A stretch of 62,636 nucleotides of DNA, counting the filler, from Rhabdomonas costata (taxonomy: Eukaryota), in assembly GCA_019059605.1 (NCBI GenBank). It is 18 parts of 18 records of this genome, joined end to end, with 100 filler letters (N's around TTAATTAATTAA, not from the genome) between each part and the next. Parts side by side here need not be neighbours in the genome. Positions count along the whole stretch, not along the records: positions 20,921 to 24,304 come from JAHMHO010000916.1; 17 more parts are not named here. One strand, given 5' to 3'. Positions 19,205-55,300 of this stretch are shown here, in pieces; positions within the stretch are counted from its first letter, which is position 1; the number at the start of each line of letters is the position of its first letter. The notes beneath the pieces were generated by a model. The model did not search any database and was not told the origin of the DNA. It was given only the letters and a program-made list of their open reading frames with translations. Both the position numbers and the translations under genes were made by a program.

Positions 19205-19980
19205 ATGTTACTTTAGAAAAGTGCTTAGAATTCACCTCCCTACAAATCGCTGCTAAGTAGGAACGTGTTCGCATTTTGGCACTGCCTCGACGAAGTGCAC
19301 GGTTGTGAAATAAAGCGATATTTGACTTTAAACTTTAAACCTATGACCTACATTTTCCATTCCTTAACGACCTTTTCCCCCACCCAAAAGACAAGAACGA
19401 TAGCCCATTGTGTGCACCATCCGAGGTCATCTGAAACCTGTAATTTGAAACCTGGAATTCCGGGTTTCCACGTCCAAAACTAGGCCGAAACCACCCCCAT
19501 ACATCCAAAACCAGGCCAAAAACATTCAAACCATGCACGCATCGCACTCATAAGCAGATCAAAAACAACTCGGGAACAACTCCGATACCTCCAAAACCAG
19601 CTCAAATCTACTCCCCTGCAACACAAAACCAGTCCACAGCTTTCAGGAGGGGGGGCATTGCATTCAGAGTCCAGGAAGGGGGGGAAGCAGAAACCTGGAA
19701 TTCCAGGTTTCAGATTCCAGGTTTCGGATTTGACCAAATGTTACTTTAGATGCTAAGTGCTGAGTACTTTAGATGCTAAGAATTCACCTCCATACAAATC
19801 GCTGCTAAGTAGGAACGTGTTCGCATTTTGGCACTGCCTCGACGAAGTGCACGGTTGTGAAATAAAAATGTCGAGGGCGATATTTGACTTTAAACTTTAA
19901 ACCTATATATTTTCGCTCTTTAATGACCTTTACCCCCACCCAAAAGACAAGAGCGATGGCCCATTGTGTGCACCATCCGA
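19205..19980. repeat. Imperfect direct duplication of about 220-240 bp (19205-19424 and 19738-19980)
   Basis: Both copies run atgttactttag...tacaaatcgctgctaagtaggaacgtgttcgcattttggcactgcctcgacgaagtgcacggttgtgaaataaa...cccattgtgtgcaccatccga, with small indels. Confidence 0.92.
19425..19735. mobile_element. MITE-like element, 311 bp, with roughly 45-bp imperfect terminal inverted repeats
   Basis: The left end is ggtcatctgaaacctgtaatttgaaacctggaattccgggtttc (19425-19468). The reverse complement of the right end (19690-19735) is ggtcaaatccgaaacctggaatctgaaacctggaattccaggtttc. There is no coding capacity. Confidence 0.7.
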
Positions 19981-20957
19981 AGTCATGTGAGTACGCTCAT
20001 CAATTCAGTATGGATATGGGGAAATGGGGGGGAGCTGTGCCACTTTTTTTTGGCCCGAGACATTACTCTATTCGCTGTGCAACGTATCCAGTGGTCATTC
20101 TCCAGATCGGATTGATCTGAAAACCCGATTTTGATCTCAGATCTCAGAGATGGTCCTTCTTGGCCTCCTTTCTTATGCTGAGAAACGACCAATCTTGGGG
20201 TTTTTAAGGGTCTTTTGGGCTTTTCTCCTTTTTCCCAATAAACAAATTACGCATCCAGGGCACTACTGTGAGTCAAAGCTTTGTGGAGGCTGGTAGCATA
20301 TTAAGGGAACTGCCGGGATTCCTTTTGCCGGCACCGGGTGGGCCGGAAAGCTTCTATTTGTTGCTGCTTCCTGAGTCCTTTTTTAGACCTTGCGGGCAGG
20401 GAAGGGCAGCTTTGCCGCATGAAGAGTGTTGACATTTGACAAGAACTGTACGCACTACTCGCCTCTCGACGCGCCAGCAACGATTTTTGTACCTGTTGCA
20501 AAGCACACCACTCATCACGGCTCTCCCAAAACCCAACAAAACAAAACTAATGCATGTTCACTGACACTTATAATTGTTGTGTGTATATCAAATCACGTAC
20601 ACACGGCACTACTATACTAAGCGCATCCCGCCGCCGCCGCCGCAGTCGAGCCGCCGGCTCGTTGTGCAAAGAAGAAGGCAGAAGACCTTAAGGGGGTCAG
20701 AGCGAGATGCAAGTGTCCCTGGGATCCCAATGGAAGAATTGCAGGGAGTTAGGAGGTGATCCCAATAGAAGAGTGGCAAGAGCAGAGGCGGGGTCCGGGG
20801 GGCCTAGCCCAAACCACCCCNNNNNNNNNNNNNNNNNNNNNNNNNNNNNNNNNNNNNNNNNNNNTTAATTAATTAANNNNNNNNNNNNNNNNNNNNNNNN
20901 NNNNNNNNNNNNNNNNNNNNTTGTGTGGGGGCCTCTCCGCGTGTGCTCGAATTTCAG

Positions 20958-23900
20958 GTGGACGAGTTTAAGGAGAAGAACAAGCGCGAGCCAACAGACG
21001 AGGAGCGTCATCGGCTGCGCCAGACGGTGCTGCAGAACGTGCGCGGCACTGTGCAGGTGCTGCGTCCCACCTCACACGTGACCATGGGTCAGAGCGCTCC
21101 CAATGTGAAGATGAATCATGACTATCGAAACTACTAACCTTCTAACGTTTCAGATGAGAGAGAGGGAGAGGGAGAGAGCTCCGTCGCCTTTGCTGGCGTG
21201 TCTCTGGCCCTACGGTGCAGCTCTGCACATGGAGCCTTGCCGTGGGAGAGCTGAACAAGGGAGGACCGCAGTGGAGCTTCGCTGTCGAGCCGAGTGCTCG
21301 GCCGCCTACAATGAGTAGGTGGATATAGACTTACCTTCCCTATCCGACAGCCTGCGCGTCCCCTGGCGCCCTTCCGTTGACCGGAGGAGCTGGATGGGTA
21401 CAGAGCAACTAGGGGAGGGGGCTCTTTTTTGTCTTTACTGGGCTTCACGGTGCTTTGTTGTTTTCCTGTCAGGCGGATATTCTCAAGGAGGACCAAGGCC
21501 AGAACACGTGCATCTTCTCCACCGACTTCGCGCTGAAGATGATGGGAGACATCCAGGCACATTCTATCCGTCCCCTGTCATTCCTTCTTGCTATGCGTCG
21601 GGTTTGGTATTTTACCTATCGACCATCCCCTTCCTGCTCTTTTTTTGGAGGTGGGGGGGCGTCGTGTCCCCCCTAATCGTTTGTCAAACGACATTTTCTT
21701 TTTCACTCTCTTCCACGTTTGTGATGTTTGACGGATTGTTTCGACTTTTCCAGGAATGGTTTATCAAGAACAAGGTCCAGAACTTCTACTCGGTGTCCAT
21801 CTCTGGGTACCACATTGCCGAGGTGTCTTCCATCACGCTCGCCCCGCTCGCCCGCTCGCCCCTTTGTGCACTGTGGGAGCCCCGTACAGTGAAGCTATCG
21901 CTGCCATGAGTCAGTAAGAGATCTGCTTTCGATGTGACATTTTCTTCGGGGGTTCTTTTTGCTTTTTGGTTTTATCTTTTGGTTCCAGTGTTGGCTGCAA
22001 ACCAAGCAAGGATGAGAGGCACATGCCACTTCAGATATGATGAATTTCTCAGGAATGCGAATTTTGACGGCTTGCCTCCATACCGCAAATAGAGCCCAGA
22101 GTAAAAGGCAGCTGGGAGCAGAAGAGAAGCGCGAGCCATCAGATGTCACATTCGGTCGCATTCGTCCTCAAATTTTAGCAAAAAGTGGGAGCCGGAGTGG
22201 TGCGGGGGGTGGGTGCAGGCTGGTGCCAACCCGATCAGCCAGCTGGCGTTCACGCTGGCCAACGGGTTCACCTACGTCGAGGCTTACCTGGCGCGTGGGA
22301 TGAAGATCGACGACTTTGCGCCCAACCTGAGCTTCTTCTTCAGCAGCGGCATGGACCCGGAGTACGCCGTGATGGGCCGCGTGGCGCGCCGGATCTGGGC
22401 GGTGGCCATGCGGGACTTGTATGTCTCCTTTCCCTCATCCTTGATGACATGTCATCCTTTCAGACCTGCAATATGCGCCAAAAAATATGTGGGGGTGTCA
22501 CGCAGTACCGGAGCCGGAAGCGCGGCGGCAGGTTTAGCCTCGGGCTGAGGGTTCCCAGCCACAGAGAGTGTGTTTATTTGTGCTAGGTACGGTGCCAGCC
22601 CTCGGTCACAGGTGCTGAAGTACCATCTGCAGACCTCGGGGCGCTCCCTGCACGCTCAGGAGTTCAACTTCAACGACATCCGCACCACTTTGCAGGCACC
22701 GCCCCCCCTCCCTTTCGCTCCTCATTTACCTATCCTGTCTCTTCTGGAGCAGTGGCCCCAATTCACCACGTGAGTAGCGAACGCTTATTAATGAATGGCG
22801 ATGTGGTGCAAAGGGACCTTTTTATATATAGAAAAAGTAAGTGTTGAATGAGTCGAAAGTGTTTGTATACTATGGTAGAATCTCGCTTCGCGCTCCCTCC
22901 TTGCTCCGTATATTTCTCCTCCCTTCCGTCTGTCGCGTTGAGATTCTGTTTTGAGGAGTGTGCGATTCTGCGTGTGTTGGTTCGGGGAGTGGGGGCTATC
23001 TGATGGCCAAATATTGAATAATAAGATAGCTGTGACACTTAGCTGTGGATCTTAGCTGAGATGTGAGGATCCGCTCCGGAGTCTCTGAGAGATGCCACCC
23101 ATATGTCGAAGTGGAAGTCGATGGTTGAAAAACGGAGATCTACCCGAACGCAAGGTCCCCACCATTTGGCTGCCACCGCTAAGACGTTCAAAACAGATGC
23201 TGTCTTATGGAGCACTCTCTGCCATTCTCTGTCGCTCAGTCGTTTATTCCCACTTCCCTCCAAAAAGCCCCCGCCCCCACTCAGACTGTCCTGCCTTATA
23301 TTTGTGTGTGGGCACGTTCAGGCGCTGATTGGGCTGTACCAGAACTGTAACAGCCTGCACACCAACTCCTACGACGAGGCCATCACCACCCCGACGCAGG
23401 AGTCCGTCCGCCGCGCACTGGCCATCCAGCTGATCATCAACAAGGAGTGGGGGCTGTCGATGAACCAGAACCCTAACCAGGTGTCCCCCCCCCCTCACTC
23501 CTCCCCGATTTTCTTTGTTTCAGTTACCAAAGGAGGGGAACCTCCTCGTGGCGAAAATTGAATTTTGAGACACACACACACAACCTAAGGATAGCTTCGG
23601 CAGCCCTTGCTAGCGGGTCGCCATCTGTGCCCTTCGAACCCCCCTATCCTTGCCTGACAGGGCTCGCACGTGATTGAGGAGCTGACGGACCTGGTGGAGG
23701 AGGCTGTGCTGCGGGAGTTCGAGGCGATCAGCGAGCGCGGCGGAGTGCTAGGGGCGATGGAGCGTGGCTACCAGCGCGGGCGGATCCAGGACGAATCCCT
23801 GTACTACGAGCGCAAGAAGCAGGACGGTGTGTATTTGTTCTTTCTTGAAGTCGTGGGAAAGTTTAGAATTTGGTGCCATTCTTCGTCCACTTGCTTCACC

Positions 23901-24304
23901 AGCTTCACCAAAATCAATCTACTTGCGCTGCGGTGCCCGTGTGGGTGGGCACTGGGTGTGGTTTTGTGGTTACCACGCTCTCCTGAGCAGGTGGCCTGGA
24001 ACTGAGAAGACCTGCTTACCTCGCAGATTTCACTTTGCGGGTCTACCTCCTTGGAATTGCTGAATGCCGTTCCATCCACCGCATCCATTTCTTTCAGCCA
24101 CCATCGACCAGTACCCCCTAGCCAGTGCGATTCGGGCTGGGAAAACCTTGGATGCACCAAACAAGCTATTCTTTTTGCCATCGCCTATTTGATTCTGATC
24201 AACTACCAAGATATGCTCTCAAACCCTGATGAACCTGCGCTGCAGGCTCGCTGCCGATCATTGGAGTGAACACCTTCCTGGGCAGCAGCAGCCTCCCCAC
24301 CACA
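20958..24304 (+). CDS. icmF: IcmF-type adenosylcobalamin-dependent acyl-CoA (isobutyryl-CoA) mutase, C-terminal substrate-binding domain, 8 exons, partial
   Basis: Exons 20958-21056, 21473-21556, 21754-21822, 22219-22418, 22587-22695, 23322-23480, 23661-23826 and 24246 onward splice in frame. They read [23 protein letters not shown]...[41 protein letters not shown]...[11 protein letters not shown]...[15 protein letters not shown]...[12 protein letters not shown]. These are IcmF-type rather than mitochondrial methylmalonyl-CoA mutase (MCM) motifs. Confidence 0.9.
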
Positions 24305-45434: not shown

Positions 45435-46751
45435 CTGGTAATCAATGTCGATCTTGCCCATCTTGGGCTGAATCTTGTCCTTTGCCTTATGCTTCTGCTT
45501 CTTCAGCTCCTCTCGTTGCAGATAGTTCTCCCGGATCTTCGAGATGCCCGTGTCAGCGATGAACGCTGTACAATCACCACCAGAATGCAGATAAACTTCC
45601 TCAAACAGGACGACTTGAGTTTTTTTTAAACGCAATGAAACGCTGAACGCTAACCGCACCGTGTCGAATTTTTATTTTGCAACAGCGGTGGAAACGAGAA
45701 AGACGGGTACGCGGAAGTCACACCTGGTAGCTCGAAGGGCGGCTTCTCGATGCCGCGCTTGCCCTGCAGATACTTCCGCTTGTGAGACCAGTGCCTGGGT
45801 ACAGGTACGGTGTTGCGGTAAGACTTGAGGTACACCAGAAGCTTGGGGTCCGCGGCGGACGCGTCGTGCACTTCCACCACGTCAGGTCGTGCAACGAGCT
45901 GCTTCAGCTGCGCCACGTCCAGCCTCTTCAGCTTCTTGCGCTGCTTCCGACTCAAGGGCTTCTGCGGAGTGATGGGAAGGAGCACTCCGGCCAAATGAGA
46001 AAAGCAAAGTGCTAGCAGCACTTTTTTCTGAATAATTTCTTTTCACACTGCTTCTTTCTTTTTCTGAATATGCAGGTGTGCGCGTCAGAGAGAAAGAGAA
46101 AGAGAAAGAGAAAGAGAAAGAGAAAGAATGAAGAGACAAGAGAAAGACAAACGCTCAAAACCATGAGAAACGTTACTCGCTTGGCATTCGCGTGTGAACG
46201 TATGGTTTCCGAAATCTTCAGACACGCACTGTTTTCAGTCCTTTCCTCTGCGGAAAGGACATGGAAAATCATTACAGAAAAAGGGCACACATCTCCTTGT
46301 GCACAACTTGCAAAGGAAAACATGCGATGTCCACACGTCCAGACAAGAACATGTGACGCAAAGTACACCTCAGTCAAGGCGTTCTCATCGGGACGCTTAT
46401 CATCTTCATCTACAAGCGCAGCAGAGGCGGGCTCTCGGACCTCTTCCTGGACCTCTTTAGGCTGGAACTTGGCGAAGACATCGCCGAAAACGGCATAGCT
46501 GGGATCGCTCTCATCAATACCTGAGAAGACGCGATCCAGTGAAACGAAACATCAGAGAGCAAATCGTTCGGTTGCTAACCTCTATCCCCCTGCCAAGCAC
46601 AGCCCACCTGACAAAGGGCACACGACATACCATAAGTGATGTATTCAATCTCGAACAGGGGATCTTTTTCCTCAGGTGGTGGCTGCGGTTCCGAATGACT
46701 CTTCTGCTTCTTGTGTCGCTTTCTTGGAGCGGCATTCTTGTTTTTGGAGCC
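45435..46751 (-). CDS. SF3B2: Splicing factor 3B subunit 2 (SAP145/Cus1), partial
   Basis: Exons 46751-46631, 46520-46369, 45961-45724 and 45565-45435 read LKQLVARPDVVEVHD...DPKLLVYLKSYRNTVPVPRHWSHKRKYLQGKRGIEKPPFELPAFIADTGISKIR...QPKMGKIDIDYQ. Confidence 0.95.
46087..46128. repeat. (AGAAAG)n microsatellite in an SF3B2 intron
   Basis: About six tandem hexamers. Confidence 0.85.
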
Positions 46752-52144: not shown

Positions 52145-52330
52145 NNNNNNNNNNNNNNNNNNNNNNNNNNNNNNNNNNNNNNNNNNNNTTAATTAATTAA
52201 NNNNNNNNNNNNNNNNNNNNNNNNNNNNNNNNNNNNNNNNNNNNGTTTTTTGGGACGTATGTCTTGGGCTGTCTTTGTCCCTTGTCTTCCAATGTTCCCA
52301 TGCGACACACTCCCGCTGCACAGTCTGCAG

Positions 52331-55300
52331 GTGCCAACGTCCCGGCCTTCACGGTGTACAAGACGGCCATCACGAACTCCTACAACGGCTATGGGGTGCG
52401 CACGCTGCTATCGATCGGGGGGTGGTCGTACCGGGACGACTTCAGCTTTCTGGCGACGATGACGGCGGGGCAGCTGACGGCGTGGGCTGGGCAGGTGAAG
52501 GCGTGGGTGGACCAGTTTGGGGCGCACGGGATTGACATTGACTACGAGGCGGAAACTGCGGCGCAGTGGCAGAGTGAGCTGGTATTTTCACGTATTCTCT
52601 TGTGTTGTGGATTCTAATTGTGGGTAGATAGGATTCGGGATGTAATGTGGCTGGTTTATACTATGTCGTTTTTGTAATGCTTTAGCCTTCGGAGGGACTC
52701 ATCCTTAATCCCACCACGAATTTCCGGTCCCAGCCACCGTCAACCTCAATCATATTTCATCGTGTGAGCATCTTCGCGACCCTCTGCAACCACGACAAAT
52801 GTGGTGTTATTGATGTCAAAACAATGTAGCGTTATATTTATACAGGTTCTGGATGATCAGCGAGCGGCATCACGGCCCCTCGGTCTTGACTTGTGTGCAC
52901 ATCATTGCAACTCCGCATTCTGCAAAGGTGGGCTTCCCCGCAGAGTACGTCTACGTGTGCTTCCGAGTTGTCTTACCAATTTCTCTTGATGCATTGCTGC
53001 CATAGGTTCAGACTAAGGTCCTGCACTACCTCCGCGTGGCCATGCCCGCGGGCTCCTACATCCTCCTCCTCACCGTGGGAGGCCTCGCGGCGGCGTACGG
53101 CAGCCCCGCCGCGGTGCAGGCCGCGTTAAGCCCCCCGCTGTCGCAGGCCTACCCCAACTCCGGGATCGCGCTTGCAGTGATCCAGGCGCACTGGGGGGAC
53201 CTCGACCGGATTCAGCTGATGACGTACGATGGGGAGCCCAACATGGACCCCCGGGTGTGCATGGGTCTGGCGGTGCAGGCGTTCACGGTAATGGGGAAGA
53301 CGCCCGCGGAGGCCGCGGCGAAGCTTCTGGTGGGAACCGAGCTGGGGGGTCAGTATGGCAGCTGCACTGGCGTCTCCGCGGGGTGGTGCCTGCAGGACGA
53401 CAAGGTACTCCCGCTTGCCGGCGAGGTGGCGCTTAAGGGGTACGGTGGACTCTTCTACTGGTCCAATCTGGACGCAGCGCCCTCGATCGCGATCTACCGC
53501 TCCACTTACCCCATTGTTCACAGCGGAGGTTTTCACCCTGCCTTGTGATTGGGATGTGTGGATGTGAAACAGCATGAGATGCCGATCTTTCGTTGATGCC
53601 GGGGTCAGCATGAGTTACTGGACTCCATGCATTTTTTCATTTGAGGTGATGTAACTGTTGCGCCGATTGTCTTTGAGCCTTGAGCCTTGCCTTTCTTCGC
53701 ATTCGTTGGCTGGTTTGTTTTATGGCAGGATTGTACTTTGCTCACGTTACTCAACAGGTGTGCCCAACCCTTCGGTGTGTGTGCCTCTGTGCGGGGGACG
53801 CAACTGCGGTCCCGATGGGTGCGGTGGGGTATGCGGGACCTGCCCGACGGGACAGCAGTGCACGGCCCAAGGGACGTGCACAGCCCTGTGCACCCGGAGC
53901 TGCACGGGAAAAACCTGTGGTCCTGATGGGTGCGGCGGGGTGTGCGGCACATGCCCCACCGGGCAGCAGTGCAATACCCAAGGGACCTGCGCCACTGTGT
54001 GCACTCCGACCTGCACGGGGAAAACGTGCGGGTCGGACGGGTGCGGCGGGGTTTGCGGAACATGCCCTACCGGACAGCAGTGCACTGCCCAAGGGACGTG
54101 CTCCTCGCAATGCGTTCGAAGCTGCACGGGGAAGACCTGCGGTTCGGACGGGTGCGGCGGGGTATGCGGAACATGCCCTACCGGGCAGCAATGCAATGCC
54201 CAAGGGACGTGCGCCGCTGTGTGTACACCGAGCTGCGCAGGAAAGACCTGCGGGGACAATGGCTGTGGAGGTGAGTGTATGTGTTCTTTTTCTTCCCCAA
54301 AGTGCAATTCTTTAACTTTTGTCAGTGGTATTAGTTAACATATATAAACAGGTGTAGGTAGTTTTAGTACCGGCCAAGAATTAGCCTGCTTCCCTGCTTA
54401 TGGTTTTTATCAAACAAATGAATGTGTGCAAGGTGATCGGGACTTGTTTTATCACTCTCTCCCCTCGTCAAACACAGTCAACCTCTCAAGATTTGTCGCC
54501 GGGTTGGATCGGGAACACCGCAACATTGTATGTAGGATCGTGCGGGAGCTGTGCCTCGGGCCAGAGTTGCGTCTCCGGCAGCTGTGTCGCCACGCCCGTA
54601 CCCCCTCCGCAGCAGCAGGTTTGCGCCGGGGTAAGCTCAGGGCTGGTGCGGGATCCCTCGAACTGCGCAGCCTTCCACACATGCTCTGGGGGCAAGGACC
54701 TCGGCACCACTCAGTGCGGCGCGGGCCTTCTGTTCAACCCTACTGCTCAGATCTGTGACTGGCCTGACAAGGTCTCTTCTCTTACTAACTCTCACGCACA
54801 CACTCTCACTTCATCCCCCTCTCCCTCCTTTTGCTGAGATGTGCGGTACTGACCGCTCAACGGTTGTTGCTGGTTTAATTGTGACAATAATTGTGCAATT
54901 GCAATAGTCTGCCGAGGTTTTCCAACGTTAGTCTCCATTCTTGACATTTATTGGGGTTTTTTAGTTGAGGTTGCTTGGTGCGCAGGTACTCTGTTTTTAT
55001 CCCCGCAGGTAAGCTGTAGTACTCCTCCAGCTTGCACTCGGAACTGCGTCTCGAAGAACTGCGGCAGCGATGGTTGTGGGGGTATGCAGCGTTTCTTGAC
55101 CTGTGTCCGTGTTTTTTCTGTTCTGAGCGAACGATGCTCCATGTAGATGGGATGGTGTTCGGGGGAGAACAGGATGTTGGGATCGCTGGACTACTTGCAA
55201 TCGCACTTTGCGGTTGCAGCTTTGGGGTGAGTGAAGTCTTCTTTGAATGGCGCGCGGCTGACCTTTTCAAACCTATCACCCTCACTCCCACAACAGCGCT

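Follow-up and report, generated by a model that had tools for sequence, protein, structure and literature searches.

The window analysed in this study, a stretch of 62,636 nucleotides from Rhabdomonas costata, consists of 18 unrelated contigs of approximately 3.38 kb each, separated by N linkers, and is drawn from an assembly of 97 Mb in 104,289 contigs (mean below 1 kb per contig). One entire contig (JAHMHO010000916.1, G000:C916; window 20921-24304) carries a piece of a gene assigned below to IcmF, the fused isobutyryl-CoA mutase of bacteria, and since the piece occupies a whole contig, the window DNA on either side is not its genomic neighbourhood. The exons, with their positions on the IcmF model NF045497, and the introns defined by splicing are as follows.

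20958..21056, + strand: exon 1 (33 codons), NF045497 681-713; the last codon is Gln, presumably the equivalent of IcmF Q732
21057..21472, + strand: intron 1, GT-AG, 416 nt, phase 0
21473..21556, + strand: exon 2, containing an 11-residue motif, NF045497 714-741; codon 21500-21502 is Gln where methylmalonyl-CoA mutases (MCMs) carry Arg, and is taken to be IcmF Q742
21557..21753, + strand: intron 2, GC-AG, 197 nt, phase 0
21754..21822, + strand: exon 3 (SISGYHIAE), NF045497 742-764; Tyr-His at 21808-21813, which we take to be IcmF Y779/H780
21823..22218, + strand: intron 3, GT-AG, 396 nt, phase 0
22219..22418, + strand: exon 4, the most conserved exon, NF045497 765-830 and 4xc6 chain residues 804-869
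22419..22586, + strand: intron 4, GT-AG, 168 nt, phase 2
22587..22695, + strand: exon 5, containing an 11-residue motif, NF045497 832-867
22696..23321, + strand: intron 5, GC-AG, 626 nt, phase 0
23322..23480, + strand: exon 6 (LHTNSYDEA), NF045497 868-920
23481..23660, + strand: intron 6, GT-AG, 180 nt, phase 0, with four in-frame stops
23661..23826, + strand: exon 7, NF045497 921-975
23827..24245, + strand: intron 7, GT-AG, 419 nt, phase 1
24246..24304, + strand: exon 8, truncated by the contig end; its first 12 residues align with bacterial IcmF

Removal of the seven introns (five with GT and two with GC donors, all with AG acceptors) gave a frame of 945 nt and 315 codons without a stop and with a GC3 of 0.88, which reproduces the eight exons and the continuous peptide with its four quoted motifs described in the first-pass annotation. 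Exons 1-7 abut along NF045497 from 681 to 975, position 831 being the codon divided by intron 4, and NF045497 was the best NCBIfam match for all seven exons tested. Therefore, the exon borders are confirmed independently of the splice signals and are not a product of chance. In Euglena, GC-AG introns form a known minority class, with 659 against 11,527 GT-AG introns in the available text of PMC11170887. Approximately 90 C-terminal IcmF residues are absent beyond exon 8, where the contig ends, and the final ~10 nt of this exon may be a contig-end artefact. Across the window, 13 of the 18 contigs start with at least nine G/T in ten bases and 10 of the 18 end with at least nine A/C in ten, which is probably an assembly or library artefact, so that terminal bases are unreliable.

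Several features were observed on other contigs of the window. A fragment of a SnoaL-like domain lies at a contig end (10195-10356, + strand; PF07366, E 4e-6, just below the cut-off), a DUF382 exon, of a domain presumably known from the splicing factor SF3B2, at 45653-46042 (- strand; PF04037, E 2e-24), and a fragment of a chitinase-type glycoside hydrolase of family 18 at 52246-52614 (+ strand; PF00704, E 1e-7). A local duplication at 19229-19920 gives similar translations at 19229-19483 and 19866-20120, and includes a short tandem unit near 19740-19780.

Assignment of the catalytic domain

Comparison with known mutases places the spliced peptide with IcmF. Exon 4 alone matched Cupriavidus IcmF (4xc6) with an E-value of 2e-36, whereas the matches to human MCM and to the two-subunit mutase structure 4r3u were far weaker (6e-10 and 8e-10, respectively), and identities of the peptide to the listed full-length IcmFs from bacteria were 76.5-82.8%. 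Tree reconstruction (50 rows, 312 columns) grouped the peptide with 41 IcmFs at a support of 100/100, and the unfused large-subunit mutases were located outside this clade. Pieces of another mutase found in this genome, on contig C776, grouped with ScpA-type MCMs outside IcmF, although their row fills just 31% of the columns and is subject to a long-branch warning.

The diagnostic residues gave the same assignment. The motif DQ[G/A]Q, present in the window as DQGQ after DILKE, was found in all 41 IcmF rows and in none of the seven other mutases, five of which carry Arg at its last position and none of which has DQxQ; QTSGRSL was likewise found in the window and in 41/41 IcmF rows, compared with 0/7 other mutases. 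The final Gln of DQGQ aligns with 4xc6 chain residue 762, which we take to be Gln742 on the assumption of a 20-residue tag offset. In IcmF, Gln742 replaces the carboxylate-binding Arg of MCM, and Phe, not Tyr, at position 598 is the specificity residue. A search of the Rhabdomonas costata genome for the exon carrying Phe598 gave no candidate. Among 197 full-length proteins carrying the DQxQN motif, a set preselected for lengths above 1000 aa, Phe and the P-loop were each present in 196. Frames longer than 1000 aa were observed at 69 of the 80 named bacterial loci recovered with exon 6; where the 5' end was complete, the P-loop was present in 66 of 69.

The assignment to IcmF rather than MCM, as initially annotated, is thus supported by the model tiling, the exon 4 E-values, the tree and the substitution of Gln for Arg, and the tree that had been proposed against the mutase families placed the peptide in the IcmF clade and the organism's own MCM elsewhere. 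As judged from its sequence, the contig holds the catalytic TIM-barrel portion of an IcmF-clade gene that is distinct from the MCM gene of the genome. It resembles bacterial IcmF (NF045497; Cupriavidus metallidurans 4xc6 and 8ssl) in its barrel sequence and motifs, including what we take to be the equivalents of Gln732, Gln742, Tyr779 and His780. Mitochondrial MMUT (2xij) shares the fold family, the cofactor and probably the compartment; however, MMUT has Arg at the carboxylate site. In MMUT, the B12 domain is C-terminal and the chaperone is separate. The two-subunit mutases IcmAB and HcmAB perform the same radical chemistry on non-carboxylated acyl-CoAs, but 4r3u is distant in sequence.

Remaining pieces, leader and companion enzymes

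The first-pass annotation located the B12-binding and GTPase domains outside this contig. A full-length IcmF query on the same genome recovered IcmF-like exons on four further contigs, each in a single copy.

C31507: B12-binding domain piece, NF045497 2-81, DGHD present
C49013: G-domain piece, NF045497 255-293, the sole family matched
C40048: G-domain piece, NF045497 324-358, the sole family matched
C14003: linker piece, NF045497 449-550, the sole family matched

NF045497 was the best or sole family for the scanned pieces of these contigs, introns flank the exons on all four, and their GC3 was 0.81-0.89. The pieces thus comprise the N-terminal B12 domain, the MeaB-type G-domain and the linker known from IcmF, here on separate contigs, and none of the five contigs with IcmF pieces joins two IcmF domains. 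When all pieces were merged, 615 alignment columns with one overlap covered ~57% of the model, whose whole-protein cut-off is 1500 bits. The remaining ~43% of the protein, to which the Phe/Tyr exon, the P-loop, switch III and also the C-terminus belong, was not recovered, and gaps are to be expected with contigs averaging less than 1 kb. The unlinked pieces, each found once, fit one single-copy gene as far as their sequences go.

The unlinked pieces, together with the lack of a candidate Phe598 exon, could also represent a changed descendant of IcmF, with split genes, decay or another substrate such as isovaleryl- or pivalyl-CoA. The best identities of three G-domain and linker exons (~44-64%) are lower than that of the barrel (82%), and the EukProt protein P0153, described below, has merely 117 aa. 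However, no stop or frameshift was found in the recovered exons, barrel identity remains at approximately 80%, and the linker exons are sensible only in a fused form; moreover, the Gln whose loss reportedly favours pivalyl-CoA is retained, and gaps are expected in such short contigs. We consider a changed descendant unlikely and prefer an intact fused IcmF.

The linker exon gave 27 candidates in the 90% protein collection, none of them significant, whereas all 13 candidates for the G-domain exon were significant (ENA/NCBI proteins, 64-72%); these 13 were considered as a sister group and rejected, as the tree places them elsewhere. An ESM Atlas query with P0129 returned IcmF clusters without useful taxa.

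The B12 exon on C31507 opens with a 38-residue leader containing five Lys/Arg and no Asp/Glu, a length reached by none of 74 full-length bacterial IcmFs, whose leaders have a median of 18 and a maximum of 35 aa. Of 146 screened database fragments, 24 have a leader that starts with Met, spans no fewer than 24 aa and contains two acidic residues at most, some of them probably through miscalled starts, so that such a leader is a weak feature by itself. By its composition, the C31507 leader resembles a mitochondrial presequence and probably directs the protein to the mitochondrion; it is a candidate for the targeting peptide whose search was suggested earlier. A 72% pyrimidine tract lies immediately before the start codon of C31507 (L013:274-323); a trans-splice acceptor at this site was considered and dropped, since no AG lies between the tract and the ATG.

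When the leader exon was compared with 1.84 billion representatives, 1316 matches were obtained, two of which scored far above the others. The first, P0153, is a EukProt record of 117 aa listed under the euglenid Rhabdomonas costata, and corresponds to exons 1 and 2 of C31507, joined across a GT-AG intron of 377 nt, with identity along 108 aa. Like C31507, P0153 matches NF045497 2-81 and contains DGHD, of the DxHxxG type expected of the B12-binding domain. Its id is shaped like Rhabdomonas costata transcript ids and the protein is therefore read as transcript-derived; this id had no match in the six supplements of PMC8219788 that were searched, the predicted mitochondrial proteome table included. 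The second, P0154, from a 684-bp ENA metagenomic contig, is identical to C31507 at 52 of 53 domain residues, has a leader of 35 aa with five K/R and no D/E, and turns Pro/Ser-rich exactly where the C31507 intron starts. From its protein sequence, P0154 may be read as the orthologue of a closely related organism in which this intron is shared. Sources were retrieved for 14 of the best 150 of the 1316 matches, and a EukProt origin was found only for P0153, in a collection whose 50% clustering can hide further EukProt relatives. Another ENA fragment, P0196 (759-bp contig), covers an IcmF N-terminus preceded by a leader of 44 aa with six K/R and no D/E, and could represent either a further targeted copy or a bacterial protein whose start was miscalled. 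The window's own exons had no identical protein among the 120 matches listed, and two intron-junction patterns gave no match each in JGI metagenomes.

A canonical MCM, which groups with MCMs, a stand-alone MMAA and a PduO-type adenosyltransferase are also present in the genome as separate pieces, so that the separate canonical MCM to be looked for was found, with MMAA in addition. A piece of MMSDH was identified as well, and HIBADH-like matches were weak. The MMSDH piece suggests that the ordinary valine route persists.

Host, contamination and origin

The host is a euglenozoan, marked by paraflagellar-rod genes (PF05149; nine matches in the genome, best E 3e-24, and none in 14 control genomes), and the label of P0153 is that of a euglenid. 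A search for the spliced-leader motif, in the form assumed by us, gave one match in this genome, not an SL gene, compared with five in the control, and carries no information on lineage.

The first-pass annotation proposed an old lateral transfer. IcmF is patchily distributed in bacteria: a full IcmF was found in 29 of 401 sampled genomes of one alphaproteobacterial class, and IcmF was found in 26/151, 6/101 and 6/201 genomes of three other phyla. No bacterial relative is close to the merged sequence, the best identity being 71%. In a quick tree, the merged sequence nested among Pseudomonadota (SH-aLRT 91). Pseudomonadota as the donor was dropped, as constrained trees scored higher: the tree constrained with eight alphaproteobacterial rows scored above the free tree with a p-AU of 0.51, and that constrained with five actinomycete-type rows exceeded the free tree by 22 log units with a p-AU of 0.77. 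The higher scores of the constrained trees show that the free search had stopped short of convergence, and since both placements are unrejected, the tree favours no donor. Around the bacterial relatives, a scan of 60 out of 113 frames showed no conserved operon; scattered neighbours included thiolase, 3-hydroxyacyl-CoA dehydrogenase, acyl-CoA ligase and TetR genes.

The same protein could have descended from the alphaproteobacterial ancestor of mitochondria, or have entered early in Euglenozoa, and been lost elsewhere, as the 29 full IcmFs in the alphaproteobacterial class and the unrejected alphaproteobacterial grouping would allow. Against this, the actinomycete-type grouping fits better still, many losses would be required, a single EukProt record and one close relative stand out among the best 150 of the 1316 leader matches (with sources for 14), and no IcmF term occurs in the Euglena and Diplonema supplements, two files being covered in part. 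We regard either history as quite improbable. Lateral transfer is likely, although an alphaproteobacterial origin is unrejected, and it is preferred solely because no trace was found in the other eukaryotes searched; for its proposed age, the gained introns and the ameliorated codons are the only indications.

A bacterial contaminant or a chimeric assembly, which the high identity to bacteria and at least one bacterial-like transcript in the Rhabdomonas costata data (BtuB row, Table S5, PMC8219788) might suggest, is refuted for practical purposes, as the annotation had argued from the introns: removal of seven introns restores exact profile tiling, more introns are present on the four other contigs, the EukProt protein P0153 is spliced and identical across the intron of the N-terminal piece, and the GC3 of the window (0.88) equals that of a paraflagellar-rod exon (0.88), with the MCM and MMAA exons alike. 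A divergent eukaryotic MCM, although of the same Pfam family (PF01642), is refuted by the exon matches to NF045497 and the IcmF clade at 100/100; Gln instead of Arg and the separate canonical MCM and MMAA also speak against it.

Proposed role and significance

The best explanation overall, which we hold with good though not full confidence, is that R. costata has a nuclear, intron-split gene for a fused IcmF taken from a bacterium and provided with a mitochondrial leader. Unlike bacterial IcmF, the euglenid gene would be nuclear, is split by introns and carries a basic leader of 38 aa that exceeds all 74 bacterial leaders. Bacterial-type IcmF chemistry would then occur in the mitochondrial matrix, as a redox-neutral shunt from isobutyryl-CoA, derived from valine or isobutyrate, to n-butyryl-CoA, which could enter beta-oxidation in air or, under low oxygen, serve as the C4 primer of mitochondrial reverse beta-oxidation toward wax esters. 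Conversion of isobutyryl-CoA to propionyl-CoA by the ordinary route yields reducing equivalents; the mutase step yields none, and its product butyryl-CoA is an intermediate of both chain elongation and beta-oxidation. According to the available text of PMC10481361 and PMC9974510, bacterial IcmF converts isobutyryl-CoA into n-butyryl-CoA and back, does the same with pivalyl-CoA and isovaleryl-CoA, and is loaded with adenosylcobalamin via GTP-driven pairing of its G-domains. The portion of PMC8219788 available to us describes MCM and enzymes of wax-ester chain synthesis (reverse beta-oxidation) in the Rhabdomonas costata mitochondrion, and a glyoxylate cycle as absent from it.

The shunting of valine or isobutyrate carbon into the butyryl-CoA pool appears to be the likeliest role, with the case for and against it evenly balanced; the priming of iso-branched lipids may be an alternative. 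The link to valine catabolism in the first-pass annotation remains plausible, but the genome likewise has the MMSDH piece, which belongs to the ordinary route for valine.

Concerning the known distribution of the enzyme, a 2009 survey gives MetH, MCM and class II RNR as the only three eukaryotic B12 enzymes (PMC2667541, in part), and a 2021 survey, in its accessible part, confines isobutyryl-CoA mutase to prokaryotes (PMC8085122). No eukaryotic IcmF was found in the literature searched, which lay mostly outside subscription papers. The terms isobutyryl-CoA mutase and IcmF had no match in the supplements of PMC8219788, PMC7052976, PMC12267456, PMC8611851 and PMC10161547 or in parts of those of PMC7403612 and PMC8227486, and PMC4428469 and PMC11599936 contained nothing relevant to eukaryotic IcmF. 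A precedent for bacterial B12 enzymes in a protist comes from Anaeramoeba, a lineage unrelated to euglenids, in which laterally acquired bacterial B12-dependent enzymes are reported, two of them said to be new to eukaryotes (PMC11550330, available part). These two could bear on priority; they are named only in Supplementary Note 3 of that paper, and "butyr" has no match in its main text.

IcmF chemistry is already known, as are, from the accessible text of PMC11550330, bacterial B12 enzymes in protists; what is new is an IcmF-clade enzyme beyond the domain of life of its description. In its fullest and more tentative form, which may well not hold in all its parts, this finding would represent the first eukaryotic isobutyryl-CoA mutase and a second mitochondrial AdoCbl mutase, passing valine or isobutyrate carbon without NADH into anaerobic wax esters via butyryl-CoA, or in reverse priming iso-branched lipids, in at least two related euglenids and with its own fused chaperone beside MMAA. 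A domesticated IcmF would lengthen the list of eukaryotic B12 enzymes and give the carbon metabolism of euglenid mitochondria a further branch point. If true, fused and stand-alone chaperone systems would operate in one organelle, probably with one shared adenosyltransferase, and would provide a natural test of cofactor sorting.
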